A stretch of DNA of 64,000 bases, taken from positions 3,584,001-3,648,000 of the forward strand of contig OZ245817.1 of the NCBI GenBank assembly GCA_965228475.1, written 5' to 3'. This document shows, in pieces, positions 24,281 to 63,479 of this stretch; position 1 is the first letter of the stretch, and each line of letters starts with the position of its first letter. The DNA is from Myxococcota bacterium. Lineage in GTDB: Bacteria; Myxococcota_A; UBA9160; JAFDDA01. The notes under the pieces are model-generated. The model was not told the DNA's origin, ran no database searches, and saw nothing but the letters and a program-made list of their open reading frames with translations. A program made the position numbers and the translations under genes.

Positions 24281-24389
24281 GGGGTCCCATTCTAGAGATC
24301 GCACGCAACCCGCGTGCGGACGGAATTGTAACGTGTTTCACTCTGGCCGCGGGCGGGCAAACCCGCGGCACGAGAGAAGGAGAGGCGGG

Positions 24390-29401: not shown

Positions 29402-29509
29402 TCATAACCCTCTGCCAGAGTGAAGTTTTTCGGTTTCGCGGCCGCTTGCATCCCGTCCGCCATTTGCGATACGCTACGTCTCGAAATTCAACCGAGAGGC
29501 GGATCGACC

Positions 29510-30400: not shown

Positions 30401-30402
30401 CC

Positions 30403-32972: not shown

Positions 32973-32981
32973 GAGTCCTGC

Positions 32982-33785: not shown

Positions 33786-33787
33786 CG

Positions 33788-47858: not shown

Positions 47859-49565
47859 CTACTCGTCGATGAAATCGTTCTCGCCCTCCCCTGCCAGGAC
47901 GTGCTTCAGGACCTTGCCGGCCGCGTTCCGCGGCAGCGCCTCCTCGCGAATCTCCCAGTGGCTCGGGACCTTGAAGTAGGCAAGTGCCTCCCCGACGTGT
48001 CGGCCCAGATCCTCGGTCTTCGGCTTCCCGCCGGCCCGGGGGACGACGAAGGCCTTCACCTCCTGACCGAGCTCCGGGTGGGGCACGCCCACGACCGCGG
48101 CCTCGGCGACCTCCGGATGCTCCTCCAGGCGATGCTCGATCTCGGCCGGATAGACGTTCTCGGCGCCGCGCAGGATCAGGTCCCGCCGTCGGGAGTTCAC
48201 GTAAAGATAACCGTGCTCGTCGAGACGTCCCCAGTCGCCGGTTCGAAGCCACCGACCCGCGCCGATGCTCTCCTGCGTCGCCTCCGGCTTGCCGTGGTAC
48301 TCGCGCATGACGAGGGGGCCCGAGAGATGGATCTCGCCCTCCTCTCCGGGCCCGAGGACACGGCCATCGTCCGGGTCGCGGATCTCGCAGCCGAGGGTCG
48401 GCAGCATGCGGCCGACCGAATCGGGCCGGGCCTCGAGCTCCGCACCGAAGTGGATCGTCGCGAGCCCGGTGTTCTCGGTGAGCCCGTAGCCGAGCCCCAT
48501 CTGACGACGCGCGTTCGGAAAGAAGGAGCGAAGCCGGTCGAGGACGTCCTGCGAGATCGGCGCACCGCCCGAGCCGCACTGCGTGACGCTCGAGAGGTCG
48601 TACTTCCCGGCGTCGGGATGGTCCATGCAGCGGTGCAGCATGTTCCCGAGCGGCCCCCAGCTCGTGACCCGTTCGCGCTCGATCGTCGCCATCGTGTGCT
48701 GCGGGTCGAAGCGCCCCTTCATCCAGACCGTCTTGACCCCGCCGGCGAGGAGCGTCACGGCGCCGGCGTAGAGGCCCGACACGTGGAAGAGCGGCGTCGA
48801 GACGAGCATCACGCGCGGCGGCGGAGGCGGAGCGTCGGGCGGGGGCGGGCCTTGGATCTTCATGAGGCGAAGCCCGTGCCAGACCTGGAGGCGATTGACG
48901 GCGACGATGTTGCGGTGGGTGTTGACGGCGCCCTTGGGGCGCCCGGTCGTTCCGCTCGTGTAGAGGATGCAGGCCGGATCGTCTTCGTCGACGGGGACGT
49001 CCGGGAGGCCCGCCGAGGGGTCGAAGGCCTCGAGCTTCGCGAAGTCGTGCTCGATCACGACGACGGGGATCTTCACGTCGTCCGCGCGCAGGCGGGCCAG
49101 CCGCTTCTCGTCGCCGACGAGGACCTTTGCCCCCGAGTCCTCGAGCCCGTAGAGGATCTCGTCGCGCACCCACCAGCCGTTCATCCCGACCGCGACCGCG
49201 CCCAGGCTGACCGTCGCCCACCAGGTGATGATCCACTCCGGGCAGTTCGCGGCAAGGATCGCGACGCGATCGCCGGGCCCGACGCCGTACTGCGTCGCCA
49301 GCGCGCGGGCCACGGAGCACACCCGGCGGTGGTGTTCCGCGAAGGTGATGCGGCGGTCTTCGTAGACGATGAACTCGGCGTCCCCGAAGGCGCGGGAGCC
49401 CTCCACCAGGGCGCGCAAGGAAGGCAAGCGATCCCGGAAGACCGGCGTCGGCACGCCGAAGACGTTCTCGTGGGTGACGTCGAAGGGTCCGCCCGGGGCG
49501 AGCAGCTCGCGCTCCGCCGCCGCGTGGGCCTCGATGTCGCTCGCCTGGAACGCCGCCGCACTCAC
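47859..49565 (-). CDS. Long-chain acyl-CoA synthetase (class I adenylate-forming)
   Basis: YTSGTTGRPKG, GYGLTE, WLRTGD, RNAAGKVLK; GTG overlaps upstream TGA. Confidence 0.93.
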   Translation of the reverse strand: MSAAAFQASDIEAHAAAERELLAPGGPFDVTHENVFGVPTPVFRDRLPSLRALVEGSRAFGDAEFIVYEDRRITFAEHHRRVCSVARALATQYGVGPGDRVAILAANCPEWIITWWATVSLGAVAVGMNGWWVRDEILYGLEDSGAKVLVGDEKRLARLRADDVKIPVVVIEHDFAKLEAFDPSAGLPDVPVDEDDPACILYTSGTTGRPKGAVNTHRNIVAVNRLQVWHGLRLMKIQGPPPPDAPPPPPRVMLVSTPLFHVSGLYAGAVTLLAGGVKTVWMKGRFDPQHTMATIERERVTSWGPLGNMLHRCMDHPDAGKYDLSSVTQCGSGGAPISQDVLDRLRSFFPNARRQMGLGYGLTENTGLATIHFGAELEARPDSVGRMLPTLGCEIRDPDDGRVLGPGEEGEIHLSGPLVMREYHGKPEATQESIGAGRWLRTGDWGRLDEHGYLYVNSRRRDLILRGAENVYPAEIEHRLEEHPEVAEAAVVGVPHPELGQEVKAFVVPRAGGKPKTEDLGRHVGEALAYFKVPSHWEIREEALPRNAAGKVLKHVLAGEGENDFIDE

Positions 49566-52500
49566 GCCACGAGGTCCCCCATCTCGCGCAGGGTCTCGAC
49601 CACGTCTTCGGGCAGAACGGGCGGCTCCTTCCCGAGGTTCCAGGAGCCGAGCATCAGCTGCGCGGAGCGGTCGATGATCTCGACCATGTCGGCCGCCCGG
49701 CGGAGCGTCCGCCCGCCGACGAGGAGGCCGTGGTTCTTCATCAAGACGGCCCAGCCCTCGCCGATGCCCTCGCCGATCGCGTCGGCCAGCGCGCGGGTGC
49801 CGGGCATGATGAACGGGATCCTCGGAATGTTCCCGAAGAAGGCGGCCTCCGTGGAGACCGGAAGGAACGGCAGGTCGGCGTTCGCGAGGATCGTCGCGTG
49901 GGGGGCGTGGGCGTGGACCACGGCCGTGGCCTCGGCCTTCGCGCGGTAGACCGCGCAGTGCATCATCCACTCGCTCGAGGGCGAAAGGCTCCCCTCGAGG
50001 CGCTTCCCGTCGAGGTCGATGCGGACCAGCAGCTCGGGGCGGAGGTCGCCCTTGAAGAGCTGGCTCGGGGTGATCCAGATCTCGTCCTCGCGCTCGGGGA
50101 CCCGGACCGAAACGTTGCCGCCGGTCGCGGTGATCAGTTCCTGGGCGTAGAGCTCCTCGACCCGGGCCAGGAGTTCGTGACGCACGTCGCTCGCACCGAC
50201 CGAAGTCACGAGCGCCGGTGCTCCGCCGCTGGCCTCCGGATCCGGCAGGCTCGCGAGGTCACCGGGGTCACCGCGTTCCGCCCGGGCCGCCTGGTAGATG
50301 CGCGACAGGTCGGACTGGATCTGCTGCAGCGTCATCGCCTTGGCCGTGTCGCCGCTGAAGGAGAGCCCTCCGTTCATGGCGGCCTGCATCGGGTTGACGC
50401 GGCCCGTGAACATCCCGTCGAGGACGTCGGCGCGCATGCGCAGCTCGACCTCCGGCGCTTCGGGGGGCGCGGTCATCGCCCCCGAGACCGTCCCCGCCCG
50501 CAGCGAGAAATGGAACTCGATCGGGAGATCGTTCAGCAGGAAGTGGAGCGTCACGTCCTTGTCGCGCGAGAACTCGGCCAGCCCGCCATCCGCAGCGATC
50601 CCCGAAACGAAGGCTTCCACCACCGAGGACATCGCGGAGGCGATCTCCGGAGACGCCGCCTCGCTCGCTGCCGCCGCCGCTGCCGGTTCGCCCGCCTCGG
50701 CCGGCTTCTCCTTCGCCCCCTTCCGACGACCTTTCTCGAGGTCCGTCACGGCGGGCCCCGGGCGCGCGGCGAGCTCCTCGAGCGCTTCGGGAGACAGCTC
50801 GGGGCGCGGACGGTCGAGCCGGAAGGCCTCCGCCGCACGGGGGTTCAGCGCGTAGCGCGGCGCCTCGCCCCGCAGCAGACGGGCGAGGTCCTCGGCGATG
50901 ATCCGGCCCTGGTGCGCTTCCACCTCCTCGGTGTTCCCGCCGACGTGAGGGGTGGCGACGACGTTCTCGAAGCCGAGCAGCGGGTGGTCGTGCCCCGGCG
51001 GCTCGACGGGGAAGACGTCGGTGGCGGCGCCCCCGAGCTGGCCGTGCGCCAGCGCTTCGACGAGCGCCGCCTCGTCCACGAGCGCCGCCCGCGCGGAGTT
51101 CACGAGGCAGGCGCCGGGCTTCATGCGCGCGATCTCCGCGCGCCCGATCAAGCCCTCGGTCTCCGGCGTCACCGGCGCGTGGAGACTCACGAAGTCCGAC
51201 TCCGCGAGCAGGAGGTCGAGACCCACGGGCTCGGCCCCGGCCCGGACGATCGCTTCCTCGGGCAGGAAGGGGTCGAAGACGACCACCCGCGCGCCGAAGC
51301 CCGCGAGGCGTTTCGCGACCCCGCGGCCGACGGCACCGAGACCGACCAGCCCCACCGTCTTCTGCCAGAGCTCGCGCCCCCGCAGCGACTGGAACGCCTG
51401 CCCCATCTTCCCCATGTCGCCGGCCTGCACGGAGGGGTCGCGCAGGAATCGATCCGCCGCCACGAGCTTGCGCGCGAGCAGGAGGAGGTAGGCGACCGCC
51501 AGATCCGCGACGGCGTCGGCGTTGCGCCCCGGTGCATTCAAGACGGGGATCCCGAGCGCCGTCGCCGCTTCGAGATCCACGTTCACCGCATCCCCGCGAC
51601 ACGACGCGACGACGCGGAGGTCCGCGGCCCGGGCCATGGCCTGCGCATCGACCACGTCGATCTCCGTCACGAAGACCGCGACCCCCGCCAGGGCGTCGAC
51701 GAGGTCCTGCCCCGTGAGGAGCCGCATGCGCTCGCGGAAGGGCGCGTACTCGACGTCTCCGAGTGCCTCGAGGGCTTCGCGCGACGCCGCGTCGAGGCCC
51801 GCCGTCACCAGGATCCGGGGCCGGGGCGAATCGCCCGCCGCCACGGGCGCCTCGTTGCGGCGGGTCATGACCGCGGGCAGCACGGCCTGGAAGGCGAGGT
51901 CGGCGCCCGCGCCGTGCGCCTCGCCCAGGGCGCGCCAGTTCTCCCGGACGGGCGCGTAGAAGGCTGCGCGCTCGGCATCCGGTGCGAGCGTTCGCTCGGG
52001 CTGCGCGTGATGCTCGGCCGCCGCCTCGAGGGAGTCGAAGCATCCGGCGGCGACGCCGGCGCAAAGGGCGGCACCGAGACCCGTCGCCTCGGGCTGCGGC
52101 CCGATCGCCACCTCCCGCCCGAGCACGTCCGCCAGGAGCTGCCCGAAGAACCCGCTGCGCGAGAGGCCGCCCGTCAGCGTGACGGCGCTCCCGGGACGCC
52201 CGCTCGCGCGCTCGAGCTGTTCGACGGTGCCGTGCAGCGCGAAGGCCAGACCCTCCGCGATGGACCGTGCGAGACCTCCGCGCCCCGCCGTTTCGTCGGC
52301 GGCGAGATGGCTCAGGGTGAGATCGCCGAGCGGGAGGGCGAGCGAACGCGCGTCCCCGATCTGTGCGCCGAAGGTCGAGCGGAAGCCATGGGCGCCGGGC
52401 GGAGCCGCGGCGGCCTCGGCGAGCAGACGCGCGGCGGGCTGCGGTGCGTCGGGCGCGAGCAGGCGTCCGATCCAATCGAGGGCCTCGCCGGCCGGCCCGG

Positions 52501-53401
52501 CGTTGCTCTCGGCGACCCAGCGGCCCGACACCAGATGGTGTCCACGCCACAGGCGTCCTTCGGCGTCGCGGGGCACCTCGTCGAAGACCTGCATCACGGG
52601 AAGCGTGCTCCCGGCCACGGCCCCGACGTCCGCGGGGGCGAGGACGCCGGCACCGAGCAGGGCGCACTGGGTGTCGCCGCCGCCGAGCGCCACGGGCGTT
52701 CCGGGACGCAGGCCGAACGCTTCCGCCGCCTCGGCGGTGAGACCGCCCAGCCGGTCGCCGGCGCGGCCCAGCTTCGGGAAGGCCGCCGCCGGAAGGCCGA
52801 GCCGGTCGATCCACTCCCAGGCCCACTCGCCCTTGCGAAGATCGAAGACCATCGTGCAGCCGGCCTGGCTCGGCTCGGCGGCGATCTCGCCACAGAGCCG
52901 GAAGGCGAGCCATTCGTCGAGCGAGAGGACGTGGGCGACCCGGGCGAAGGCTTCGGGCTCGTTGCTCGCGAGATGCATGATGCGAGCCGCCGGCATGAAT
53001 GGGGCCGGCCAGTGGCCCGTGGCCGCGGCGATCTCCGCACCGTCGGAGGCGGCCAACCCGATCGCCTCCCCGGCGGCGCGCGCGTCCCGATTGGACGCCG
53101 CCTGCACAGCAGTGCCATCGGCCGCGAGCAGGACGCTCGAGAAGCGCATGGCACTCGCGGCGACGCCGGCCACCTGTTCGGGCCGCGCATCGGCGCGCCC
53201 GAGGGCGTCCCGGGTGGCCTCCCCGAGCTTTCGCCACAGCGCGGGAAGGTCGACGTCGCTCCCGGTCCCGCCCGTCCCGGGCGCCGCGGCGTGGACGAGC
53301 CCACGCGACGCCCCGAAGACCGCTCCGCTCTCAGCGTCGACGAGCCGAGCGCGGGCGCCGCCGCCGCCGATGTCGAAGCCGAGCAGGTAGGTGGCGCTCA
53401 C
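49562..53401 (-). CDS. Four-domain fusion: FGGY kinase, D-2-hydroxyacid dehydrogenase, SCP2, class II aldolase
   Basis: GFDIGGGG/GGGDTQCA/TGGLSRS; GLVGLGAVG/NSAR/DVFPVEP/TPHVGG; NPMQAAMNGGLSFSGD; GGNVSVR/PSSEWMMH/HAH/NHG, all in one 1279-aa frame. Confidence 0.88.
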   Translation of the reverse strand: MSATYLLGFDIGGGGARARLVDAESGAVFGASRGLVHAAAPGTGGTGSDVDLPALWRKLGEATRDALGRADARPEQVAGVAASAMRFSSVLLAADGTAVQAASNRDARAAGEAIGLAASDGAEIAAATGHWPAPFMPAARIMHLASNEPEAFARVAHVLSLDEWLAFRLCGEIAAEPSQAGCTMVFDLRKGEWAWEWIDRLGLPAAAFPKLGRAGDRLGGLTAEAAEAFGLRPGTPVALGGGDTQCALLGAGVLAPADVGAVAGSTLPVMQVFDEVPRDAEGRLWRGHHLVSGRWVAESNAGPAGEALDWIGRLLAPDAPQPAARLLAEAAAAPPGAHGFRSTFGAQIGDARSLALPLGDLTLSHLAADETAGRGGLARSIAEGLAFALHGTVEQLERASGRPGSAVTLTGGLSRSGFFGQLLADVLGREVAIGPQPEATGLGAALCAGVAAGCFDSLEAAAEHHAQPERTLAPDAERAAFYAPVRENWRALGEAHGAGADLAFQAVLPAVMTRRNEAPVAAGDSPRPRILVTAGLDAASREALEALGDVEYAPFRERMRLLTGQDLVDALAGVAVFVTEIDVVDAQAMARAADLRVVASCRGDAVNVDLEAATALGIPVLNAPGRNADAVADLAVAYLLLLARKLVAADRFLRDPSVQAGDMGKMGQAFQSLRGRELWQKTVGLVGLGAVGRGVAKRLAGFGARVVVFDPFLPEEAIVRAGAEPVGLDLLLAESDFVSLHAPVTPETEGLIGRAEIARMKPGACLVNSARAALVDEAALVEALAHGQLGGAATDVFPVEPPGHDHPLLGFENVVATPHVGGNTEEVEAHQGRIIAEDLARLLRGEAPRYALNPRAAEAFRLDRPRPELSPEALEELAARPGPAVTDLEKGRRKGAKEKPAEAGEPAAAAAASEAASPEIASAMSSVVEAFVSGIAADGGLAEFSRDKDVTLHFLLNDLPIEFHFSLRAGTVSGAMTAPPEAPEVELRMRADVLDGMFTGRVNPMQAAMNGGLSFSGDTAKAMTLQQIQSDLSRIYQAARAERGDPGDLASLPDPEASGGAPALVTSVGASDVRHELLARVEELYAQELITATGGNVSVRVPEREDEIWITPSQLFKGDLRPELLVRIDLDGKRLEGSLSPSSEWMMHCAVYRAKAEATAVVHAHAPHATILANADLPFLPVSTEAAFFGNIPRIPFIMPGTRALADAIGEGIGEGWAVLMKNHGLLVGGRTLRRAADMVEIIDRSAQLMLGSWNLGKEPPVLPEDVVETLREMGDLVA

Positions 53402-54687
53402 GCGCGGGCGGCCGTCGGCTCGAAGGTCACCGGAAGCGCCTTGGGGGCCCGGAAGATCATGCCCGTGATGTGGACGTCCTCGGCGGCCGGATCGAGCGCG
53501 AGCCCGGGCAGCCGATCGAGCACCGCGTTCACGACGGTCTCGGTCTCGGCCTTCGCCAGATGCATGCCGAGGCAGCGGTGGGGGCCGAAGGCGAAGGCCA
53601 TGTTGGTCTTCGTCTCCCGGAAGAGGTCGAACTCCCCGGGCCGGTCGTAGCGGTCCGCATCGCGGTTGGCGGCGCCGAGGTTGACGCTGACCGTGGAGCC
53701 GGCGGGAATCTCGACGCCCGCGACCTCCGTGTCGCGCGTCGCCGTGCGCATGATTCCGAGCAGCGGGCACTCCCAGCGGAGCCCCTCCTGGACGGCCTGG
53801 GGCAGGAGGGAGCGATCGGCCCGAAGGGCCTCGAGCTGCGCCGGGTTCGAGAGCAGGCCGAACAAGAGGTTGCTCGAGGAGCGGTAGGTCGTCTCCGCCC
53901 CCGCCGGCGCCAGCAGGCGCAGGAAGGCGAAGATCTCGTCGTCGGTCAGGCGCGTGCCTTCGAGCTCGGCGTGGGCCAGCACGCTGATCAGGTCGTCGCG
54001 CGGGTCGCGGCGCCGGTCGGCCAGCACGCGGGCGAAGATCTCCTCGAGGCCGGCGGAGGCCTTGGCGCCCCGCTCGAAATCGATCGAGACGCTGATCAGC
54101 TCCACCGCGAGCCGGTGGAAGTCCGGGAAGTCGCGCGCGGGCAGGCCCATCATCCCGGCGATGACCGCCACCGGGAACGGGAACGTCAACTCGCGCACGA
54201 GATCCGCCGAGCCGCGCGCCGAGAAGCGATCGATCAGCCCGTGCACGACGGGGGCGATCAGGTCCCGCTCCCACGCTTCGATCGCCTTCTTGGTGAAGGC
54301 CTTCTGGATGAGTCCGCGGTAGCGGGAGTGCTCGGGCTCGTCCATCTGCAGGATCGTCCGGCCCATGACCTGGCCCATGGTCTCGGCGTAGCCGGCCGAG
54401 GAGAAGGTCTCCCCGTCGCGCAGCACGTGGGAGACGGCCTCGTGACTCAGCGCGACGTAGATCTCCGAGGACATGCCGGGCGGGAGCTTCACGTCCACGC
54501 CTTCGCCGCCCATGAGTGAGCCGGTCTCGATCTTCACGACGGGCCCCTGGGCCCGGAGCGCGGCGAAGATCGGGTACGGATCGCGCACGTTCCCCATGCC
54601 GGCGGAACGGTTGAACTCGTCGAAGGGGTCGTAGTCCCCGCTGCCGCCGTGAGCGGCGAGCAGTCCGGAAACGAGGTCTTCGCTCAT
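53398..54687 (-). CDS. Cytochrome P450
   Basis: AGAETT, EGLR, FAFGPHRCLG; GAGGAG RBS. Confidence 0.95.
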   Translation of the reverse strand: MSEDLVSGLLAAHGGSGDYDPFDEFNRSAGMGNVRDPYPIFAALRAQGPVVKIETGSLMGGEGVDVKLPPGMSSEIYVALSHEAVSHVLRDGETFSSAGYAETMGQVMGRTILQMDEPEHSRYRGLIQKAFTKKAIEAWERDLIAPVVHGLIDRFSARGSADLVRELTFPFPVAVIAGMMGLPARDFPDFHRLAVELISVSIDFERGAKASAGLEEIFARVLADRRRDPRDDLISVLAHAELEGTRLTDDEIFAFLRLLAPAGAETTYRSSSNLLFGLLSNPAQLEALRADRSLLPQAVQEGLRWECPLLGIMRTATRDTEVAGVEIPAGSTVSVNLGAANRDADRYDRPGEFDLFRETKTNMAFAFGPHRCLGMHLAKAETETVVNAVLDRLPGLALDPAAEDVHITGMIFRAPKALPVTFEPTAARA

Positions 54688-55352
54688 GGAGTCCTCCTCG
54701 GCGCCGCGGGGGCGTCGCCGTTGGTCCCAAGCAGCCGGTGGGTGATGCGGAGGACCTCGGCGCGGTGGGCGTCGAGGTGTTCCTTCGCGAGGGGATCGAA
54801 GTCGAGGGCGGGGAAGAGCGTCGGGATCGCGGAAACGAAGAAGACGGTCGCGCCCGCGATCGTCGCCGCGAGATGGGCCGGGTCGATCGGCGTGCGGATG
54901 CCGCCGTCCTCGCTCGCGCGGGACTCCTCGATCGCCCGCTTCGCGAGTTCGACGAAGGGTCCGGTGTGGCGCAGGATCACCGGGCCGTCGGTACCGGTCG
55001 CGCCGGCGATCTCGCGCAGCAGCAGCCGCGCGAAGGTGGGGCGGCGCCCGACGAAGTCGACCCAGGCGGAGATCGCCAGGTCGACGCGTTCCGCCATCGG
55101 CCCCTTGCTGGAGAGCGGCGGGGCGACCTCCTGGTAGAGGCCGTCGAGCACGTGCGCGATCACGGCGTCGTAGAGCGCCGGCTTGTCGCGGAAGTAGTAG
55201 ACGATGGACGCGCGGCGGATGCCGACGCGGGCCGCGACGTCCTCGAGCCGCGTCGCGGCGAACCCGTTCTCTGCGAACAGGACCTCGGCGGCTTCGACGA
55301 TCGCCGCCCGGGTCCGCTCCGCCTTGGCGGTCGTCTTCCGGCCTTCGCTCAT
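54684..55352 (-). CDS. TetR/AcrR family regulator
   Basis: AAEVLFAENGFAATRLEDVA...SIVYYFRDK. Confidence 0.92.
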   Translation of the reverse strand: MSEGRKTTAKAERTRAAIVEAAEVLFAENGFAATRLEDVAARVGIRRASIVYYFRDKPALYDAVIAHVLDGLYQEVAPPLSSKGPMAERVDLAISAWVDFVGRRPTFARLLLREIAGATGTDGPVILRHTGPFVELAKRAIEESRASEDGGIRTPIDPAHLAATIAGATVFFVSAIPTLFPALDFDPLAKEHLDAHRAEVLRITHRLLGTNGDAPAAPRRTP

Positions 55353-55419: not shown

Positions 55420-56628
55420 CTAGCGGGTCAGGAGGATCGCGCTGGCCAGGGGCCCGCCGCCGGCGGCCGCGACGGCGACCTGGGGCGTCGGCGCGACCTG
55501 CCGCTCGCCGCCCTCGCCCCAGAGCTGGACGCAGGCCTCGTGCAGGAAGCCGTAGCCGTGGAGGCGGCCCGCCGACAGCTGGCCGCCCTGGGTGTTCAGG
55601 GGGATCTCGCCGTCGCGCGCGATGCGCGTGCCGCCTTCGAGGAAGGGGCCGCCCTCCCCTTTTCCGCAGAAGCCGAGGGCTTCGAGCCAGGCCAGGGTGA
55701 TGAAGCTGAAGCCGTCGTAGAGCTCGGCGACGTCGACGTCCGCCGGCCGGAGGTCCGTCCGCTCCCAGAGCATGGCGGAGGCGTCGCGCAGGGCCATGGT
55801 CGTCAGGTCGTCCCACTGGTCCCAGGACGGACGCCCGTGGATGGCGGTGCCGACGGCCTCGACGCCGATCGCCGGCCGGCGGAGGTCCCCTGCCCTGTCC
55901 TTCCGCGAGACGATCACCGCCGTCGCGCCGTCGCACGGGACGTCGCAGTCGAACAGGCCGAGCGGGGTCGAGATCATGCGCGCGCCGAGGTAGTCGTCGA
56001 GACTCATCGGCTCGCGGTAGATCGCCGCCGGGTTGAGGGCGGCGTTCTTGCGCGCGTTGATCGCGATCTGCCCGAGCTGCTCGCGCGTGGTGCCGTACTC
56101 GTGGAAGTGTCGCTGGGCGCACAGGGCGATCCAGTTCGCGGCCGAGTAGGCGCGGAAGGGCAGCGACCACTCCATCGCTCCCGAGGGCCGGAAGCCGCGG
56201 CCGCCACCGCCGCCCGAAGGCAGGCCGATCCCCGAGCGGCCGCCCTTGCCCTGGGCCGTCGCCTCCCACACCGAGCGGAAGCACAGCACGTGGTTCGCGA
56301 GCCCGCCGGCCACCGCCATGCACGCGTTCACGACCGACCCGAGCTGGCCCGGCATCTCGAGGCCGCCCGTGTACCAGCGCAGGGAGAGCCGCAGCGCATC
56401 GTGGACCTCGGCCACGCCCGCCCCGGTGAAGCCCGGCGCACCACCCATGGCCCCGGGGTACGTCGCGATCCCGTCGACGTCCTCGCGGGTGAGGCCGGCG
56501 TCCTCGATGGCCGCGACGCAGGCGTCGAGCGTCAGGTCGAGGGGGTCGCGGTCGATCCGGCGGCCGATCTGCGACTGGCCGATCCCCGTGATGCAGGCCT
56601 TGCGCTCGGCGATTTCGCTCGCCGTCAC
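55420..56628 (-). CDS. Thiolase-like (SCP-x/Ltp type) protein
   Basis: TGIGQS, DCDVPCDG, ELYDGFS, NTQGGQLSAGRLHG. Confidence 0.88.
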   Translation of the reverse strand: MTASEIAERKACITGIGQSQIGRRIDRDPLDLTLDACVAAIEDAGLTREDVDGIATYPGAMGGAPGFTGAGVAEVHDALRLSLRWYTGGLEMPGQLGSVVNACMAVAGGLANHVLCFRSVWEATAQGKGGRSGIGLPSGGGGGRGFRPSGAMEWSLPFRAYSAANWIALCAQRHFHEYGTTREQLGQIAINARKNAALNPAAIYREPMSLDDYLGARMISTPLGLFDCDVPCDGATAVIVSRKDRAGDLRRPAIGVEAVGTAIHGRPSWDQWDDLTTMALRDASAMLWERTDLRPADVDVAELYDGFSFITLAWLEALGFCGKGEGGPFLEGGTRIARDGEIPLNTQGGQLSAGRLHGYGFLHEACVQLWGEGGERQVAPTPQVAVAAAGGGPLASAILLTR

Positions 56629-57068
56629 GCGGGCAGGGATCCCGAGCCGGGTTCGGGCTCGAACAGCGGGAACCAGACGTCGTCGTCGTGGGCTTCGAAG
56701 ACGACGCGAACGCGCATCCCGATCGTGACGTCCTCGGGCGCGCAGTGGACGACGTTCGTCATGAGCCGGAGCCCGGGCTGCTCGTCGAGCTCGACGATCG
56801 CCACCACGTAGGGATGGTCCGCCGAGGGGACCCAGGGCTGGTGGTTCAGGGTGAAGGTGTGGACGGTGCCGCGGCCGCTCACGGCTTCCGGCGCCACGTC
56901 CTTCGACCAGCAGGCGCCGCAGCGCGGTGCCGGCGGGTGGATGAACGCTTCGCAGGCCCGGCAGCGCAGGATGCGCAGGACCCCTTCGCGCCCGGAACGC
57001 CAGAAGTGCTCGTTGGCGGCGGTCACGCGCGGAAGCAGACGGAACGGGTTCTCGGGGGCCTCGGCCAT
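56625..57068 (-). CDS. DUF35 (Zn-ribbon/OB-fold) protein
   Basis: CRAC...HPP...CGAC, VSGRGTV.TFT, PYVVAIVELDEQ. Confidence 0.9.
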   Translation of the reverse strand: MAEAPENPFRLLPRVTAANEHFWRSGREGVLRILRCRACEAFIHPPAPRCGACWSKDVAPEAVSGRGTVHTFTLNHQPWVPSADHPYVVAIVELDEQPGLRLMTNVVHCAPEDVTIGMRVRVVFEAHDDDVWFPLFEPEPGSGSLPA

Positions 57069-57093: not shown

Positions 57094-58314
57094 CTAGAGC
57101 AGGTCGATCTGCCCGTCGAGGTAGGGGAGATCCATGATCGACTCGTTGCTCGCGCGGCGGCCGGCGGCGAGCTCGGTCACGACCTGGGCGATCGCGGGAT
57201 CCTCCCGGGAGAGCCGTTCGAAGTCGCTGCGCGGGAGCACGAGGGCCCAGCACTTGCCCTCGGCCATGCAGGCCGCGACCGCGGGCTCTCCGGTCACCAT
57301 GGACATCTCGCCGAACACGTCGCCGGGCTCGAGGCGAGCGAGGCGGCGGTCTCCGACCGCGTCCGAGTGGATCACGTCCACGCGGCCGGCGAGCAGCGCG
57401 AAGAGCCCTGGCGAGGGGTGCCCCTGCCGGACGAGCGCGGCGCCGTCCTTCATCTCGACGAAGCGGAAGCGGCGCGCCACCGCGTGGCGCTCGGCGCCGG
57501 GCAGCGAGGTGAAGAACGGGCTCGTGCGGACGAGGCGGTCGATCAGGCGATCGCGCACGTAGCCGAGCACGACCTCGAGCACCTTCGGCTCGGCGCGCAT
57601 CAGATCCGAGAGCAGACGGCGGTCCACCGCGAGGAGCTTCGTATCGACGAGGGCCTCGATGGTGGCGCTGCGCGGCCGTTCGGTGAGGAGCGAGATCTCT
57701 CCGAAGAAGTCTCCTTCTTCGAGCACCGCGAGCTTCTTGCGCGGCTCGCCTTCGGCCACGGGGACGACGGCGCCCTCGGCGATCACGTAGAGCGTGTCGC
57801 CCGGGTCGCCCTGGTGGAAGAGCTCGTGGTCCGCGGCGAGCTCCACGAGGCGCGCCCCGTCGATCAGGCGGCGCAGGCTCGCGCTGTCGAGACTCTCGAA
57901 GAGCGGGGTGCGCGGGAGCGTGTCGCGCGCCCAGCGGCGCGCGTCGTCGCCGCTCGTCTCCTTCCAGTCGAGCTCGATCTCGACCATCGGCTGGGCGGTC
58001 ATCTCGTTGTCGAGGGAGAGCGCCGGGGCCTCTTCCATGACGTCCTCGAGCACGAGTTCGTCGAGGGGGGCACCCTTCTCGAGCTCCACCGGCGGCCGCT
58101 CGGGAACCGGCGTCTCGTCGGCGTGAAGCTTCTCGCAGAGCGCCTCGATGCGTTCCTTCGTCCCCGGGTGATCGGGGTCGACCAGGAGGATCCGCTTGCA
58201 GGCGGCGATCGCCTTCAGCGGGGAGTTCTCCCGCTCGTGCCGTTTCACCGCCCGTTCGAGCGTCTTGATGCGGGCGGCGTCGTCGCGAACCGGAAGCGGA
58301 GTCGGGTCACTCAT
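57094..58314 (-). CDS. Tandem cyclic-nucleotide-binding domain protein with TPR-like N-terminus
   Basis: LFHQGDPGD.LYVI, FFGEISLL...PRSATI; second domain VFGEMS. Confidence 0.88.
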   Translation of the reverse strand: MSDPTPLPVRDDAARIKTLERAVKRHERENSPLKAIAACKRILLVDPDHPGTKERIEALCEKLHADETPVPERPPVELEKGAPLDELVLEDVMEEAPALSLDNEMTAQPMVEIELDWKETSGDDARRWARDTLPRTPLFESLDSASLRRLIDGARLVELAADHELFHQGDPGDTLYVIAEGAVVPVAEGEPRKKLAVLEEGDFFGEISLLTERPRSATIEALVDTKLLAVDRRLLSDLMRAEPKVLEVVLGYVRDRLIDRLVRTSPFFTSLPGAERHAVARRFRFVEMKDGAALVRQGHPSPGLFALLAGRVDVIHSDAVGDRRLARLEPGDVFGEMSMVTGEPAVAACMAEGKCWALVLPRSDFERLSREDPAIAQVVTELAAGRRASNESIMDLPYLDGQIDLL

Positions 58315-58357
58315 CGCCCTTCGTTATCGGCCACCTCGGGCTCGCCTTGACGCGCGC

Positions 58358-60595
58358 CTACTTGTCCGAGGCTTCGTGGACGCCTTCCCAGTCCGCGGCA
58401 GCCGGCGCGGACCCGTTCGCGGTGAGACGCTCCGAGTGAAGACCCCAGAGCGTCTCCAGGGAACCATCGAGCTCCCGGCAGCGGGCGAGGGCTTCGCGGG
58501 CTTCGGCCCAGCGGCCGGCGCGGTAGGCCGCCAGGAAGGCTTCGTTGGCATCGAGGAGCGCGAGATAGGCGGTCCCACCGGCGACGTCGGCGCCGCCGAG
58601 GAGCGCGTGGACGGGCTCGGCCTGGGCGCGGCCCTTCACGCGCAGCCGATCGAGTTCGAGGGTCGCGAAGCCCTCGAGCGCCTGGCTCGTGCGGTCCCCG
58701 ACGATGATCGGAAGGCCGTAGGTCTTCGACTGGCCTTCGAGCCGGGAGGCCAGGTTCACCTCGTCGCTGATCACCGAGTAGTCGAAGCGCTGGTCCGAGC
58801 CGAAGTTTCCGACGCAGCACGGCCCCGTGTTGATTCCGATGCCCATGCGCAGACGCGGAACCTTCGAGGACCCGGCCGCGGCCTCGGCGGCGAGGGTCTC
58901 GTTCAGGCGGCCGAGCTCGGCCTCCATCTCGAGCGCCGCTTCGCAGGCATGCCGTGCGTGCTCCGGATCTTCGAGCGGCGCGTTCCAGAACGCCATGATG
59001 CAGTCGCCCATGTACTTGTCGATCGTTCCGCCGTGGTCGAGGATCACGCGCGTCATGGGCGTGAGGAAGCGGTTCACGAGGCTCGTGAGCTCCTCCGGAT
59101 CGAGCTGCTCCGAGATGGTGGTGAAGCCGCGGATGTCGCAGAAGAGCACGGTCATCTCGCGCGTCTCGCCGCCGAGCCGGAGCAGGCCGGGATCCCGCGC
59201 GAGTTCCTCGACCAGGCGCGGCGCGACGTAGCGTCCGAAGGCGGACCGGACCTCGCGCCGCTCGCCTTCGGTGCGAAGGAAGGCCGAGAGCGAACCCGTC
59301 AGGTAGACGAACACGATCGCCGTCCAGGCGTAGACCGGGGCGACGAGCCAGAGGTGCTCGCGGAAGGCCCAGTAGGAGAAGCCGCCGGCAAGGACGAGGC
59401 CCGCGACCCCGATCCCGGCGCACCAGAGCGCGCCGACCCGGGGCAGCAGGACGATCAGCAGCAGGCCGATCGCGAGGATGCCCAGGAACTCGGCGCCCTT
59501 CGCCCAGTCCGGCCGCTCGAGGTAGTGCCCGGTCAGCACCTGCTCGACGAGCTCCGCGTGGAGCTGGACGCCCGGCGTGGCCGGGTCGCGCGGCGTGGCC
59601 CGGATGTCCTTCAACCCCTCCGCGCTCGTCCCGACGAACACGATGTGCCCGGCCAGGAGCTCCGGGTTCACGCTGCCGTCGAGCACCTGCCAGGCCGGCA
59701 CGTAGCGCTCGGGCACGGCCTCGGTGAAGTGGATCCAGACGCGGCCGTTGCGGTCCGTCGGGATCTGCACTTCGCGGCCGATGCGGATCTCGACGATGCC
59801 GGAGCCCGCGCCGAAGGCATCCGTCCCGCCCGCGTTCGAGGACTTCACCAGGTAGGAGCCTCCGGCGGTCGCCACGCGCAGCGCCTCGGCAGCGAGCGAG
59901 GGGTGCAGCACCTCGCCGTGGCGGAAGAGCAAGGGCACGCGGCGGAGCACGCCGTCGCGCTCGGGCCAGGGCAAGGCGAAGGAGCCCGCGCCACTCGCCG
60001 CCTCGTGCAGCGCCGGCAGGTTCGGGACCCCGCCGAGGAGATCCGGAAGGAAGCGCCGCGGGTCGTCGCCGAGGTGGCTCACGCCCGCTTTCGGCTCGGG
60101 CACGCGCCCTCCGGCGTGATCCATGAGCACGAAGCCCGCGACCACGCGCATCTCCCGGAAGGCCTGGGCGAAGACGGCGTCGTGATCGGGCAGGCCTTCG
60201 GCCCGGGCGGTGAACTCCGCGTCGGCGCTCTCCGCCCAGAGGGGAAGGACCTGCGCCGGGGAGGTGCGGTCGGGTTCCGCGAAGACGACGTCGAACGCCA
60301 CGACGGCGACGTCGAGCCGCGCGAGCGCTCGCACCAGCTCCGCCAGGTGGGTCCGCGGCCAGGGCCATTGCCCCATGCGCTGGAGGCTCGCGTCGTCGAT
60401 GTCGATGATCCGCACGGGCAGCGGCTCGTAGACGCGCGGGTGCCAGCGCTGATACGTGTCGAAGACCGCGAGCTCGGCGCGCTCGAGGATCGGTGGCTCG
60501 AAGAAGCGGAGCGAGAGCGCGCCGGCGAGCGCCGCGAGAGAAGCCCACGTGGCGATCGAAGGCAGCGCCCACGCGAATCGGCTTCGAGGTTTCAT
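58358..60595 (-). CDS. CHASE2-domain class III adenylate/guanylate cyclase
   Basis: IDID..SL...GQWPWPR, FDVVFAEPD, 3 TM segments, FCDIRGFT, DKYMGDCIMAFW, VNLASRLEG. Confidence 0.93.
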   Translation of the reverse strand: MKPRSRFAWALPSIATWASLAALAGALSLRFFEPPILERAELAVFDTYQRWHPRVYEPLPVRIIDIDDASLQRMGQWPWPRTHLAELVRALARLDVAVVAFDVVFAEPDRTSPAQVLPLWAESADAEFTARAEGLPDHDAVFAQAFREMRVVAGFVLMDHAGGRVPEPKAGVSHLGDDPRRFLPDLLGGVPNLPALHEAASGAGSFALPWPERDGVLRRVPLLFRHGEVLHPSLAAEALRVATAGGSYLVKSSNAGGTDAFGAGSGIVEIRIGREVQIPTDRNGRVWIHFTEAVPERYVPAWQVLDGSVNPELLAGHIVFVGTSAEGLKDIRATPRDPATPGVQLHAELVEQVLTGHYLERPDWAKGAEFLGILAIGLLLIVLLPRVGALWCAGIGVAGLVLAGGFSYWAFREHLWLVAPVYAWTAIVFVYLTGSLSAFLRTEGERREVRSAFGRYVAPRLVEELARDPGLLRLGGETREMTVLFCDIRGFTTISEQLDPEELTSLVNRFLTPMTRVILDHGGTIDKYMGDCIMAFWNAPLEDPEHARHACEAALEMEAELGRLNETLAAEAAAGSSKVPRLRMGIGINTGPCCVGNFGSDQRFDYSVISDEVNLASRLEGQSKTYGLPIIVGDRTSQALEGFATLELDRLRVKGRAQAEPVHALLGGADVAGGTAYLALLDANEAFLAAYRAGRWAEAREALARCRELDGSLETLWGLHSERLTANGSAPAAADWEGVHEASDK

Positions 60596-60666
60596 CAGGA
60601 GATGGTTCCGAAATCGCGCCCGGCGGCGCAAGGGCCGGGATCGACTCCCGGACGCCGGCGCGAAGT

Positions 60667-61998
60667 TCAGGGGACGAAGAAGCCCGGGATCCGGCCGAGG
60701 TCGCCGGTGAGGACCGGCCCGCCGGGCTGCGACACGCTCACCTTCGCGGCGATCTCCGCGGCCACCTGCCCGTTCACGTTCAGCACGTCGGCGTTCACGA
60801 GCACGAAGCAGGGCAGGCAGCTCGGGCTGTGATTGAAGCTCGTCGGGATCGCGAAGATCGCGTTGCCGCCGTTCCCTGCCGCGAAGTCGGTCGCGACGGC
60901 GTTCAGCACGACCCCGTTGCCGGGGAAGAGGCCGAGCACCGGCGAGGTGATGTTCTGCATGCCGAAGGAGGCGAGCTGCTGGCCGAAGTCGAGCACGAAG
61001 CCGAAGTCGAAACCGCCGCCCGAGGCGAAGCTCACCCCGGGCTGGTTGTAGACCGCCATGCCGGTGTTGATCGCGTTGAGCTGTTCGATGGTCGCGATCT
61101 GGACCCCTCCCTGGAAGGGGAGCTGCCCGGCCACGGTGTCGACCTGGTTGACGTTCGTGAGCTGCCCGACGTCCGCGAGGATCTGCTTGCTGAACTGGGC
61201 GCCGACGGCCGTGCCCTGGCCCGAGATCTTCGTCGCCGTCGGGGCGTTGGTCGGGGCCGCGGCGAGCACCGCCTGGGGCCGCGGCCGGTTCCGCTTCGCT
61301 TGCACCCGAGGTTTCGGAGCCGGAGGCTGCGCCTCGAGGTCGCCCTCGATCTTCACGAGTTCGGGAAGCTTCATCTGGAACGGGTCGCTCGGCGGCCCGC
61401 CGCCTGCAGGGAGCCGCGTCGCCCAGTTGGCGCGCACGAGGTCGACGGTGCGCCCGCCGCTCTCGATGCGCACGGCGCCGACGCGGTCCTGCCCGTTGGC
61501 GTTGCGGCCGGGTCCGAGCAGTACGATGACGGCGCTGCCGTCGTCCTCGACCTTCCCCGCGACGATCGTTCCGCGGATGCCGATCGTGCCGGTCGGCAGG
61601 CGCAGCCGGACGTCGTCGGGCCGATCCTTGGCGATCCGGCCCGAGACGAAGCGGAAGACGCCCCGGACGATCTGGGCATCGAGCTTGCCCTTGCGGCTCT
61701 TCGGGTCGTAGACGAACTCGTCGATCGCGATCTCGCTGTCCGGCCCGAGGGTGAAGACGGTCTCGTCCAGCAGCAGCACCTGCATGCCGGAATCGCCGCC
61801 GCTGCGCAGGGCATCGGCCAGGTAGATCTTCTCTCCGCTCGCGACGCCCCGTGCGGCTTCCTGCGCGCGGGCGAGTTCGACGGAGCCCCGAACCGCCGCG
61901 GAGACGCCGGCCAGCTCGGCCGCCGGCGAGGCCGATGCGAAGCCCATCGCCGCGCATGCGGACAGCGCGGCGAAGCGAAGGGAAGAGAGACGGCTCAT
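60667..61998 (-). CDS. Exported FecR-domain protein
   Basis: Signal peptide; D.T.F.LG..SE..IDEFVYDP, G.FRFVSG.IAK, GTIGIRGT; GAGGAG RBS. Confidence 0.87.
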   Translation of the reverse strand: MSRLSSLRFAALSACAAMGFASASPAAELAGVSAAVRGSVELARAQEAARGVASGEKIYLADALRSGGDSGMQVLLLDETVFTLGPDSEIAIDEFVYDPKSRKGKLDAQIVRGVFRFVSGRIAKDRPDDVRLRLPTGTIGIRGTIVAGKVEDDGSAVIVLLGPGRNANGQDRVGAVRIESGGRTVDLVRANWATRLPAGGGPPSDPFQMKLPELVKIEGDLEAQPPAPKPRVQAKRNRPRPQAVLAAAPTNAPTATKISGQGTAVGAQFSKQILADVGQLTNVNQVDTVAGQLPFQGGVQIATIEQLNAINTGMAVYNQPGVSFASGGGFDFGFVLDFGQQLASFGMQNITSPVLGLFPGNGVVLNAVATDFAAGNGGNAIFAIPTSFNHSPSCLPCFVLVNADVLNVNGQVAAEIAAKVSVSQPGGPVLTGDLGRIPGFFVP

Positions 61999-62015
61999 GC
62001 GGGGCTCCTCGGGCA

Positions 62016-63479
62016 TCAGAAGGACCACTGGCGCGAGATCGCCAGGGAGACCTTGGTGTCGTCGTAGGTGTAGTTCGTGAGGTTCGACTCGACGCGGTAG
62101 TAGTCGGCGCCCACGGTGAGAACGGTGCCGGAGGCGATCTCCGCGGCGCGGCGCCAGGGCATGAGGCTCTCGAGCGGAACGCCGATCACGACGTTCGCCC
62201 GGGCGCGCACGTCGCGGCGCCGGCGTTTCGTGCTGATGCGTCGGTCGGCACGCCAGTAGCTGTCTCGCCCCGCCAGGACCTGCGTCATCAGGAACCGTCC
62301 GGACCCGAGCAGCCAGGTGTGGCGCAGACGGAGTTCGGGGCCGTCGTAGGAGAAGACGTCGTTGGTGCGGGGCGTCGCGCTGCCGCGGGCGTCCTTCACC
62401 AGGTAGAGGAAGTCGCCGTCGAGCTGGTGGGTCGGCCGCGGGCGGAAGCTCGCACCGACGCGCGCTTCGGCCCGGACGCCGGTGTGCTCGTTCGACGTCG
62501 CGCTCTGCCGGATCGCGTCGTAGTCCTGCCATTCGCCCCGGACCCCGAAGCGCTGCGAGAAGCGCGGCGAAACGGAGCGGTCGACGGCGATGTCGAGGCC
62601 GGCCGTCTTCAAGAACGTCTCCGAGGAGAGCTGGATCACGCTGCCGACGACGCGCGGCGTGACGTCGGCCACGCGCGTTCGGTACCGGCCGCCGAGATCC
62701 AGGGCGTAGGCCCGGGTGTTGAAGTCTCCGAGGTCGAGCTGCTGGGAGACGTAGGTCGAGAAGGAGCCGAGGAGCACGTGCCCCTCGTGGAGTCCGAGGT
62801 CGTGTTCGAAGCCGGCCTGGGCGAGGCCGTAGAAGGCGAAGTCGTCCTGCTCGCGCGAGGAGGAGACGAGGTCGAGCTCGAGCCGCGCGCCTCCGAGCTG
62901 GATCAGCCGCGAACCCGAGAGCGGCGCGCTGTTGCGATTGGTCTCGTAGTTGGCACCGAAGGTCAGGGAGGTATCGACACGCGTCCGGCGTTGGCTGCGC
63001 GCGACCTGCTTGCGGTAGCGCTCGACCTCCGCGCGCTCGGTCTCGCTGAGCGGCCCGTCGGCGAGCGTGTCGAGCTCGCGCTCGGCCTCGACGAGAGAGT
63101 CGAGGCGGTAGAGGACGATCGCGTAGAGCAGGCGGACGCCGGCGAGGTCCGGTTTCAGCAGGAGGATGCGCTCGAGCGTCGCGGCGGCGCCGCGCAGCTC
63201 GCCCTCGCGCACCTGCTTGCGCGCCCAGCGGTAGCTCGTCTCGATGTCGTCGGGGTTCGCGAGCACGTCGGCCCACGTGACGTCTTCCCCTTCGAGCGCA
63301 GCCAGGGCCTCGGCCTCGGCGCGGGCCTCGCGCTGGGCGGCGAGCCGGTCCGCACCCTGGCGGAGCCGCTCGTCCTGGTCGCGGGCCGTGCTCTGGCCCT
63401 CGACCGGCAGCCCGAACGCAACGGTGAGAGCGAGAAAGACCCCGGCGCACGGCGTGCGCCAACGAAGCTGCGGCGACAA
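62016..63479 (-). CDS. TPR plus outer-membrane beta-barrel (SLAM/DUF560-like)
   Basis: A.A.LERIL...P TPR, YETN.NSAP barrel start, alternating beta-strands, C-terminal WSF. Confidence 0.8.
   Translation of the reverse strand: MSPQLRWRTPCAGVFLALTVAFGLPVEGQSTARDQDERLRQGADRLAAQREARAEAEALAALEGEDVTWADVLANPDDIETSYRWARKQVREGELRGAAATLERILLLKPDLAGVRLLYAIVLYRLDSLVEAERELDTLADGPLSETERAEVERYRKQVARSQRRTRVDTSLTFGANYETNRNSAPLSGSRLIQLGGARLELDLVSSSREQDDFAFYGLAQAGFEHDLGLHEGHVLLGSFSTYVSQQLDLGDFNTRAYALDLGGRYRTRVADVTPRVVGSVIQLSSETFLKTAGLDIAVDRSVSPRFSQRFGVRGEWQDYDAIRQSATSNEHTGVRAEARVGASFRPRPTHQLDGDFLYLVKDARGSATPRTNDVFSYDGPELRLRHTWLLGSGRFLMTQVLAGRDSYWRADRRISTKRRRRDVRARANVVIGVPLESLMPWRRAAEIASGTVLTVGADYYRVESNLTNYTYDDTKVSLAISRQWSF

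Follow-up and report, generated by a model that had tools for sequence, protein, structure and literature searches.

What reaction could be carried out by a single bacterial polypeptide in which a sugar-type kinase, a dehydrogenase, a sterol-carrier domain and an aldolase follow one another? The question is raised by a gene in a stretch of 64,000 nucleotides from a Myxococcota bacterium (GenBank assembly GCA_965228475.1, contig OZ245817.1, positions 3,584,001 to 3,648,000 of the forward strand), which as a whole is called the window below and gives the coordinates used here. The gene lies at 49562..53401 on the minus strand and encodes, from a GTG start, 1279 amino acids (aa) in the order FGGY kinase, D-2-hydroxyacid dehydrogenase, SCP2 domain and class II aldolase; it is referred to as the fusion. 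On balance we lean, with some reserve, towards the view that the fusion clips the polyol end off a lipid as dihydroxyacetone phosphate (DHAP). That the lipid is a hopanoid is a tentative proposal, and it is with similar caution that the family is put forward as a possible candidate for the still missing enzyme with which bacteria begin to break down hopanoids, one that would remove C33-C35 of bacteriohopanetetrol-type lipids as DHAP. The argument comes from the four-domain make-up taken together with an operon containing a steroid-acid CoA ligase, which point to a three-carbon phosphate unit being cut from the polyol tail of a bulky lipid. The parts of the fusion are ordinary, its assembly and its likely substrate are unusual, and it is uncharacterised; the names given to the family in databases, 'autoinducer-2 kinase' or 'NAD(P)-dependent oxidoreductase', are misleading.

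As to whether the fusion is a real gene, our results revealed a frame that is open from end to end, with a GC content at codon position 3 of 0.84-0.97 in each 300-nt block from 49501 to 53400, and with codon-position GC so uniform that no shift of frame is seen at the domain junctions. A longer open reading frame of 1722 aa was rejected as the true gene, its extra N-terminus being an arginine-rich, out-of-frame read of the upstream cytochrome P450 gene. Six Pfam matches fall on the protein, every one of them above its gathering score, and in an alignment of 68 homologues with 54-73% identity, to which all statements on invariance below refer, the catalytic and cofactor residues are invariant, so that all four domains appear intact and under selection. 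One uninterrupted frame with intact-looking motifs for the four domains had already been claimed in an earlier interpretation of this DNA (the sequence-only reading), and the open frame, the Pfam matches and the invariant motif residues bear this claim out. Moreover, full-length and stop-free fusion genes are present in 18 of the 60 other genomes of the same order, with partial or fragmented copies in 11 more, which are mostly cut by contig ends and of which four have one or two internal stops. Together with the uniform codon GC, the homologues of the same architecture and many independent metagenome contigs, these full-length copies rule out an assembly artefact or a read-through.

The kinase domain (52046..53389, minus strand; residues 5-452) is matched by FGGY_N over residues 5-250 with 121.1 bits (Pfam cut-off 28.8) and by FGGY_C over residues 291-452 with 73.3 bits (cut-off 27). 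Its residues D10, G12, G13 and D243 are invariant and align with the same motifs of LsrK, and they belong to the N-terminal DxGxxG phosphate motif and to GGGD(T/V)Q with its catalytic aspartate. The nearest solved relative is LsrK itself (5ya0), with 202 bits across residues 3-493, followed by xylulokinases with at most 108 bits. An LsrK-based autoinducer-2 (AI-2) system was considered and rejected, the kinase being a distant relative of LsrK only and the window operon holding no LsrR, LsrG, LsrF or Lsr transporter. In fact none of the fusion domains reaches an NCBIfam equivalog cut-off, the best scores being 229.5 bits against 528 for LsrK (NF008187), 237.2 against 454 for phosphoglycerate dehydrogenase (PGDH, TIGR01327) and 113.7 against 264 for L-fuculose-phosphate aldolase (FucA, NF005302); the domains are therefore members of these families and orthologues of none of the named enzymes.

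Matches of this kind give a first footing to a rival explanation, in which the fusion serves a soluble-substrate pathway and converts a small polyol, a deoxy-pentitol, an AI-2/DPD-like diketone or a sugar acid by phosphorylation, oxidation and cleavage into DHAP and a small aldehyde, with SCP2 as a mere scaffold or oligomerisation module. The best matches of the three catalytic domains, namely LsrK (229 bits in NCBIfam, 202 in the PDB), PGDH or glyoxylate reductase, and FucA or DrdA, indeed all use soluble substrates. We consider this explanation unlikely, and a first point against it comes from the dehydrogenase domain.

The dehydrogenase domain (50843..51811, minus strand; residues 531-853) is matched over its whole length by 2-Hacid_dh with 181.9 bits and over residues 637-821 by the NAD domain with 54.9 bits, both above the Pfam cut-offs, and its best solved match is PGDH of Mycobacterium tuberculosis (1ygy, 187 bits). 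The triad R771/E800/H819 is invariant and aligns with R233/E262/H280 of 1ygy, which agrees with the R/E/H residues named in the sequence-only reading. The pair T579-E580, of which E580 is invariant, takes the place of R51-S52 of 1ygy, presumably part of the anion-binding site of that enzyme, a role for which a literature search gave no confirmation. In addition, the family has an insert of its own around residues 655-672, with the consensus GDMGRMGQAF and several positions that never vary, at the place of K131-R132 in PGDH. From these two features it follows that the pocket is probably remodelled and less cationic than that of PGDH, and it would suit a neutral polyol better than an acid; in so far as R51-S52 have this role, their replacement speaks against the soluble-substrate explanation.

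The aldolase domain (49649..50176, minus strand; residues 1076-1251) is matched by Aldolase_II over the same residues with 156.6 bits, above the Pfam cut-off. Its residues E1144, H1163, H1165 and H1224, which correspond to the E, HxH, H pattern noticed before, are invariant and align with the PSSE, HxH and NHG motifs of DrdA and FucA. By sequence the ranking is 6btd (DrdA) with 111 bits, Streptococcus pneumoniae FucA with 100.7 and E. coli FucA with about 83, and by fold the best matches are again DrdA (6btg/6btd), with a template modelling (TM) score of 0.91-0.92, a root-mean-square deviation of 1.4-1.5 A and 36% identity. The report on DrdA (PMC6079011) describes 6BTD as the 5-deoxyribulose-1-phosphate aldolase of 5-deoxyribose disposal, in which Glu76, within PSSE, is the acid/base and which splits 5-deoxyribulose-1-phosphate, a 5-substituted ribulose-1-phosphate, into DHAP and an aldehyde. 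In our alignment this Glu76 corresponds to E1144 of the fusion.

It has to be weighed here whether the C-terminal domain might be no aldolase at all, but an OtnC-like decarboxylase, an epimerase or an MtnB-like dehydratase, so that a phosphorylated keto acid would lose CO2 or be rearranged. The same fold does host the 3-oxo-tetronate-4-phosphate decarboxylase (98.7 bits in NCBIfam, against 113.7 for FucA), YgbL and L-ribulose-5-phosphate 4-epimerase, and 2-hydroxyacid dehydrogenases prefer acids. Routes to DHAP by dehydrogenase, kinase and decarboxylase are moreover known (PMC12994016). However, true aldolases lead both by sequence and by fold, DrdA coming first and the FucA proteins of S. pneumoniae and E. 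coli next, with YgbL and the epimerase ranking lower. The homologues also keep, without exception, the glutamate of PSSE and the three histidines that hold the metal in DrdA and FucA, and we regard this explanation as very improbable. The tetronate variant Ltn3D/3OtnK/3OtnC was likewise rejected as a model, since Ltn3D is, according to the same source (PMC12994016), a short-chain dehydrogenase/reductase (SDR) and not a 2-hydroxyacid dehydrogenase, which leaves a likeness in logic only.

The remaining part of the fusion is the SCP2 domain (50258..50629, minus strand; residues 925-1048). The Pfam match covers a core of residues 951-1029 with 43.3 bits (cut-off 21.3, E 4.8e-11), and the region has 14 invariant positions. 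In sequence the domain resembles solved SCP2 proteins only weakly (E 0.07), but its AlphaFold2 (AF2) model reaches a predicted local distance difference test (pLDDT) score of 94.2 and a predicted TM score (pTM) of 0.87. Among the matches listed with E < 0.001, a Foldseek search of the PDB with this model returned only SCP2-fold proteins or SCP2-like C-terminal domains of alkylsulfatases, including Thermus TT1886, UbiJ and human, yeast and insect SCP2, and the TM score to the SCP2-like domain of human MFE-2 is up to 0.73-0.78. The model thus points to a genuine SCP2 fold, and the SCP2 assignment of the sequence-only reading holds by profile and by predicted fold. As a separate observation, the window contains a second SCP2-type lipid enzyme at 452-2431 (minus strand), a 659-aa alkylsulfatase composed of a metallo-beta-lactamase domain, a dimerisation domain and an SCP2-like C-terminal domain.

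The distribution of the family provides a further view on the role of this domain. In a collection of 5.8 billion proteins 729 matches to the fusion were obtained; each of the best 120 of the 729, which were inspected, contains all four domains of the fusion, and 118 of these 120 have a length of 1232-1319 aa and 51-73% identity. Among the matches listed, the sources include metagenome-assembled genomes (MAGs) of Myxococcota and 'Deltaproteobacteria', Candidatus Acidoferrales, Mycobacterium kansasii, M. persicum and M. simiae. In the phylum the fusion was found in 17 of 301 evenly sampled genomes, 13 of them from the window's own order, and a profile-guided scan of metagenome contigs yielded 252 relatives, from which 80 loci were retained. 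Besides the four-domain form, which is the only one seen in the 17 phylum matches, several variants were detected: a kinase-dehydrogenase-SCP2-SCP2-aldolase of about 1480 aa (P0262, P0278, P0285), a dehydrogenase-SCP2-SCP2-aldolase of 987-1072 aa (P0271, P0274), a kinase-less dehydrogenase-SCP2-aldolase in four of the 80 metagenome loci (L122, L125, L128, L129; about 62% identity, starting at the dehydrogenase), an SCP2-SCP2-aldolase of 540-650 aa (about 45% identical), which was not found in the 301 phylum genomes, and an SCP2-aldolase of 373-479 aa, some members of which may be gene fragments. In L128 (27-1337, 3386-5626) a separate FGGY gene with 36% identity lies divergently upstream of the kinase-less fusion.

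About 30 of the listed 50%-identity representatives span the SCP2-aldolase core, and SCP2, where present, always immediately precedes the aldolase, either singly or as a pair. SCP2-aldolase is the constant core of the family, and a structure model of the two domains together has a pLDDT of 90.6 and a pTM of 0.74. The constant position of SCP2 before the aldolase is hard to square with a mere linker, and suggests that the aldolase step may need the lipid carrier domain. In the soluble-substrate explanation the domain would serve as a scaffold, and its retention in every four-domain member examined, with so many invariant positions, sometimes doubled and always joined to the aldolase, argues against that explanation; in its favour there is one kinase-aldolase variant (P0286, 746 aa), in which about 90 residues separate FGGY from the class II aldolase and no Pfam match for dehydrogenase or SCP2 is seen.

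The operon in which the fusion lies gives the second main line of evidence. A TetR-family regulator gene (54684..55352; 222 aa), a cytochrome P450 gene (53398..54687; 429 aa), the fusion and an acyl-CoA ligase gene (47859..49565; 568 aa) follow each other on the minus strand with four-base overlaps at each junction, namely ATGA between TetR stop and P450 start (54687-54684), GTGA between the TGA stop of the P450 and the GTG start of the fusion (53401-53398), and GTGA between the TGA stop of the fusion and the GTG start of the ligase (49565-49562). By this arrangement the four genes form a translationally coupled operon. The P450 scores alike against a CYP125 ancestor (193-194 bits), PikC (188) and the steroid C26-monooxygenase CYP142 (178) in the PDB, and every NCBIfam match to it is far below its cut-off. 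The coupling of the fusion with a P450 and a steroid-acid-type ligase, as well as the lack of any sugar transporter or sugar regulator in the window operon, are two more points against a soluble substrate.

The ligase matches the NCBIfam family NF052580, 'steroid-24-oyl-CoA synthetase CasG', with 653.7 bits over 539 of the 548 profile positions, the next family being a generic long-chain ligase with 358.6 bits; the score is below the CasG cut-off of 750, so CasG is to be understood as the nearest family. After clustering of 34 AMP-binding neighbours of the fusion and removal of L058 as a near-duplicate of L057, 33 neighbours and the window's ligase were scanned, and 20 of these 34 proteins, including that of the window, are CasG-like, the 19 others at 622.6-709.6 bits and likewise below the cut-off. 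The position of the gene matters: directly downstream of the fusion all 11 scanned ligases are CasG-like, at the second place 8 of 10 (the exceptions, L123 and L124, are FadD4-like), and farther downstream one at the fifth place but not four others at places three to seven, while none of the eight upstream ligases is. CasG-like ligases are adjacent to the fusion in 11 genomes, that of the window included, and the adjacent copies are the most similar, with 63-77% identity to the window's. According to a review (PMC8399759), CasG of Rhodococcus jostii RHA1 activates bile acids with C5 carboxylic side chains, for which the chain length decides and the nucleus matters less.

If the ligase acts on an acid of the form nucleus-CH(CH3)-CH2-CH2-COOH, the fusion would act on nucleus-CH(CH3)-CH2-CH2-CHOH-CHOH-CHOH-CH2OH. 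The latter is the side chain of bacteriohopanetetrol. That side chain derives from ribose, so once phosphorylated and with a keto group at C34 it would be a 5-substituted ribulose-1-phosphate, the class of substrate that DrdA uses. We propose a scheme in which the fusion is a catabolic enzyme clipping the side chain of a lipid with an unbranched polyol at its end. In this scheme SCP2 would hold the greasy part of the substrate, the LsrK-like FGGY kinase would phosphorylate the terminal CH2OH, and the PGDH-like NAD dehydrogenase would oxidise the neighbouring CHOH to give a 1-phospho-2-keto-3,4-diol, an analogue of ribulose-1-phosphate with a lipid substituent. The metal aldolase of the DrdA/FucA type could then cut between C3 and C4, with DHAP and a lipid aldehyde as products. 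The aldehyde might be oxidised to the acid, possibly by the co-translated P450, which is pure conjecture; the CasG-like ligase of the same operon would activate this acid, and side-chain enzymes of the beta-oxidation or retro-aldol type would shorten it. The best-fitting substrate would be a bacteriohopanetetrol-type hopanoid taken up from outside, since loss of C33-C35 would leave a C32 acid, nucleus-CH(CH3)-CH2-CH2-COOH, with the side chain of a C24 bile acid.

A scheme of kinase, dehydrogenase and retro-aldol is the one that we favour; it is the sole one to combine a chemistry typical of the family for all three catalytic domains with a reason for the fused carrier. The four domains with their catalytic residues, the SCP2 fold, the make-up of the operon and the recurring neighbours are results of the analysis; the order of the steps, the lipid nature and identity of the substrate and the role of the P450 are what we infer. 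In particular, the order of oxidation, phosphorylation and cleavage suggested in the sequence-only reading is not established, and phosphorylation before oxidation is equally possible. That reading had also proposed removal of a polyol or sugar part from a lipid, for instance from a bacteriohopanepolyol, a glycolipid or an alkyl-glycerol. Circumstantially the general proposal gains from the SCP2 domain fused to the aldolase, from the operon with P450 and CasG-like ligase and from lipid-type neighbours, and it loses from a clade that lies in other surroundings, as described below, and from the dehydrogenase, whose family normally takes 2-hydroxy acids; among the examples the ligase favours the bacteriohopanepolyol side chain, the glycolipid and the alkyl-glycerol less so.

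As to the source of such a lipid, the window genome (5.0 Mb in one contig, 96% complete) has no match to a squalene-hopene or oxidosqualene cyclase, so a hopanoid would be food taken up rather than a product of its own, and remodelling of endogenous hopanoids is ruled out for this genome. Cyclase matches in five other carriers of the fusion are weak and partial (22-33 bits). Natural C30-C34 hopanoic acids have been ascribed to oxidative cleavage of the vicinal diols of bacteriohopanoids (PMC4339782). A full-text search of the literature, in which subscription journals are sparsely covered, found among the papers listed no enzyme for cleavage of the bacteriohopanepolyol side chain, no work joining SCP2, FGGY and aldolase, none pairing a sterol carrier protein with fuculose or autoinducer-2 kinase, and no published function for the fusion, so that its architecture was rightly called uncharacterised before.

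The genes around the fusion were surveyed at 101 related loci and the window, with a simple gene caller based on GC at codon position 3, with blastp clusters and with Pfam names, and for counting the fusions were collapsed at 90% identity into 81 groups. At least one lipid-type family occurs within four genes of the fusion in 39 of 63 groups, where lipid-type means P450, AMP ligase, Rieske, SDR, thiolase-like, DUF35, hydratase, acyl-CoA dehydrogenase (ACAD), WS/DGAT, LolA-like/DUF1329, fatty-acid hydroxylase or MlaE. Thiolase-like/DUF35 pairs, ACAD, hydratase and SDR genes are frequent neighbours. For example, in the window a thiolase-like gene of the 'lipid-transfer protein' type (55420..56628, minus strand; 402 aa) lies upstream of TetR, together with its partner, a DUF35/ChsH2-type protein with OB-fold and zinc ribbon (56625..57068, minus strand; 147 aa).

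Such neighbours also speak for another lipid-linked polyol cleaved by the same chemistry. This could be a long-chain 1,2,3,4-tetrol or 2-keto-triol that originates from bases of the phytosphingosine type, a steroid or bile alcohol that bears several hydroxyls and has no branch at its end, or a polyol assembled step by step by the P450 and Rieske oxygenases encoded next to the fusion. The commonest direct neighbours, a P450 upstream in the same direction (22 of 59 groups) and a KshA-like Rieske oxygenase downstream (13 of 78), could install hydroxyls; genes for WS/DGAT, fatty-acid hydroxylase, MlaE, MMPL and LolA-like/DUF1329 proteins are found near some copies, and the family is present in species of the Mycobacterium kansasii group and in M. 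simiae. On the other hand, the side chains of C27 steroids branch at C25 and by chemical reasoning cannot give DHAP by a retro-aldol step, and a plain fatty aldehyde would not require a ligase of the CasG type, whose selectivity is for C5 side chains attached to a ring system. We hold this explanation to be rather unlikely, and return to the hopanoid as our tentative choice.

Several results weigh against that choice, or against a lipid substrate altogether. The substrate is deduced from context; soluble sugars or hydroxy acids are the usual substrates of the three catalytic families, and the D-2-hydroxyacid dehydrogenases in particular ordinarily take 2-hydroxy acids and rarely oxidise plain polyols. 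With all equivalog cut-offs missed, the fusion domains cannot be named by orthology. The genes lying up to four places from the fusion at the 101 loci make 50 clusters and 174 singletons, and no hopanoid gene, either cyclase or hpn, is found among them; 24 of the 63 groups have no lipid-type family within this distance. Moreover, a Ser/Thr kinase gene directly follows the fusion in 14 of 78 groups, and these form a clade with a conserved synteny without lipid genes, consisting of methyltransferase, QueG, GH1, sulfotransferase, DUF502 and CvpA genes, then the fusion, then Ser/Thr kinase, CDF transporter and pyruvate kinase genes; this clade counts against a universal lipid context and speaks for a soluble substrate. 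The loci surveyed are related, often truncated contigs analysed with our own gene caller, and are not independent samples. A CasG-like ligase adjoins the fusion in a minority of groups, lying at most two genes downstream in 15 of the 65 with at least two downstream genes. In a whole-genome search it is commoner in the order than the fusion and present in genomes without the fusion, and in at least seven fusion carriers the best CasG-like copy is on another contig. The greater frequency of the ligase makes the fusion look like an accessory module feeding a more general pathway for polycyclic acids.

The window as a whole is rich in genes of the side-chain-degradation type. At 9531-13158 (minus strand) a thiolase-like gene (11998-13158), a DUF35 gene (11547-11975), a TetR gene (10778-11452) and a P450 gene (9531-10781) repeat the order seen upstream of the fusion, yet no fusion gene follows. 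At 29420-34519 (plus strand) there is a set of SDR, a 471-aa ChsH2-type zinc-ribbon protein, a thiolase-like protein and two enoyl-CoA hydratases, which resembles steroid side-chain aldolase/hydratase sets. The window genome carries KshA-like Rieske genes in three places, and about 20 kb separate one of these from the fusion; at L136:9754-10863, about 20 kb beyond the fusion, such a gene adjoins an amidohydrolase_2 gene and a gene for the thiolase-like TLP1, and farther along L136 follow ACAD, major facilitator superfamily (MFS) transporter, MaoC hydratase and family III CoA-transferase genes, so the lipid-catabolic region exceeds the window. Downstream of the fusion-Rieske pair, a conserved 995-aa protein without any Pfam or NCBIfam match is encoded at L123:17894-20881 and at four other loci (cluster 23).

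Other genes of the window are of a different nature. Immediately upstream of the thiolase-like/DUF35 pair, a signalling cluster at 57094-63479 (minus strand) encodes an adenylate/guanylate cyclase with CHASE2, a protein with two cNMP-binding domains, another with a FecR domain and, at 487 aa, one without a Pfam match. Genes for a HigB-type toxin, an M78 (IrrE-like) peptidase-domain protein and a 'Beta protein' family member at 6810-9416 (minus strand) may be a toxin-antitoxin or defence islet in the catabolic region, and at 20792-24304 (minus strand) a 1170-aa protein like 2-oxoacid:ferredoxin oxidoreductases (TPP, POR, DUF6537) is encoded between two luciferase-like monooxygenases.

Hopanoids are among the most abundant lipids of soils and sediments and are key molecular fossils. 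If they are the substrate, the fusion family would be a gene marker of hopanoid turnover and would provide a biological source for the C32 hopanoic acids and hopanols of soils and sediments, which are used as geochemical proxies; the C32 aldehyde or acid would enter a bile-acid-like side-chain pathway through the CasG-like ligase. Bacteria would also gain a glycolytic intermediate from a membrane lipid in a new way, and a class II aldolase supplied by a lipid-carrier domain on the same chain would be seen for the first time. Whatever the substrate, the fusion stands for a large uncharacterised enzyme family of Myxococcota-type MAGs and the Mycobacterium kansasii group, and a kinase, a dehydrogenase, a DHAP aldolase and a substrate-holding domain on one chain may be of interest for biocatalysis.

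How then does the fusion compare with known systems? In the SCP2-fused lipid enzymes, that is MFE-2/SCPx, the alkylsulfatases SdsA1 and Pisa1, and UbiJ, which are the top structural matches of its SCP2 domain, SCP2 is likewise appended to an enzyme of a hydrophobic substrate, but in none of them is the partner a kinase, a 2-hydroxyacid dehydrogenase or an aldolase of class II. LsrK, the nearest characterised relative of the kinase, phosphorylates a terminal CH2OH beside a CHOH, as proposed for the fusion, whereas the fusion kinase scores far under the LsrK equivalog cut-off and has no Lsr partner genes in its operon. The routes for L-fucose and L-rhamnose (FucK-FucA, RhaB-RhaD) similarly pair an FGGY kinase with a class II aldolase and end in DHAP and an aldehyde, and the metal and acid/base residues are shared; in contrast to them, the fusion has no isomerase, includes dehydrogenase and SCP2 domains, has lipid-type neighbours and misses the FucA cut-off.

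To our knowledge no bile-acid pathway has a kinase-dehydrogenase-SCP2-aldolase enzyme, and the fusion-linked ligases stay under the 750-bit cut-off of CasG, in which respects the fusion locus differs from the degradation of C5 side chains of bile acids. The likeness to that route consists in the frequent thiolase-like/DUF35, ACAD, hydratase and SDR genes near the fusion and in the co-translated ligase, which is nearest to CasG of R. jostii RHA1 (PMC8399759). The closest parallel in chemistry is the DHAP shunt of Bacillus thuringiensis (DrdK-DrdI-DrdA), where (PMC6079011) a 5-substituted ribulose-1-phosphate is cut by a class II aldolase to DHAP and an aldehyde. DrdA is the best match of the fusion aldolase in sequence and structure and the sole homologous component, and neither a kinase of the 5-deoxyribose/5-methylthioribose (MTR) type nor an isomerase goes with the aldolase in the fusion, which therefore does not belong to the shunt itself. 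Instead, the FGGY/LsrK-like kinase would act on an open-chain CH2OH, the NAD dehydrogenase would replace the aldose-ketose isomerase as the maker of the ketone, the presumed substituent would be a large lipid and not H or CH3S, and all steps would be kept on one polypeptide with SCP2. Altogether the fusion is likely a cleavage like that of the DHAP shunt, joined to a fused lipid carrier.

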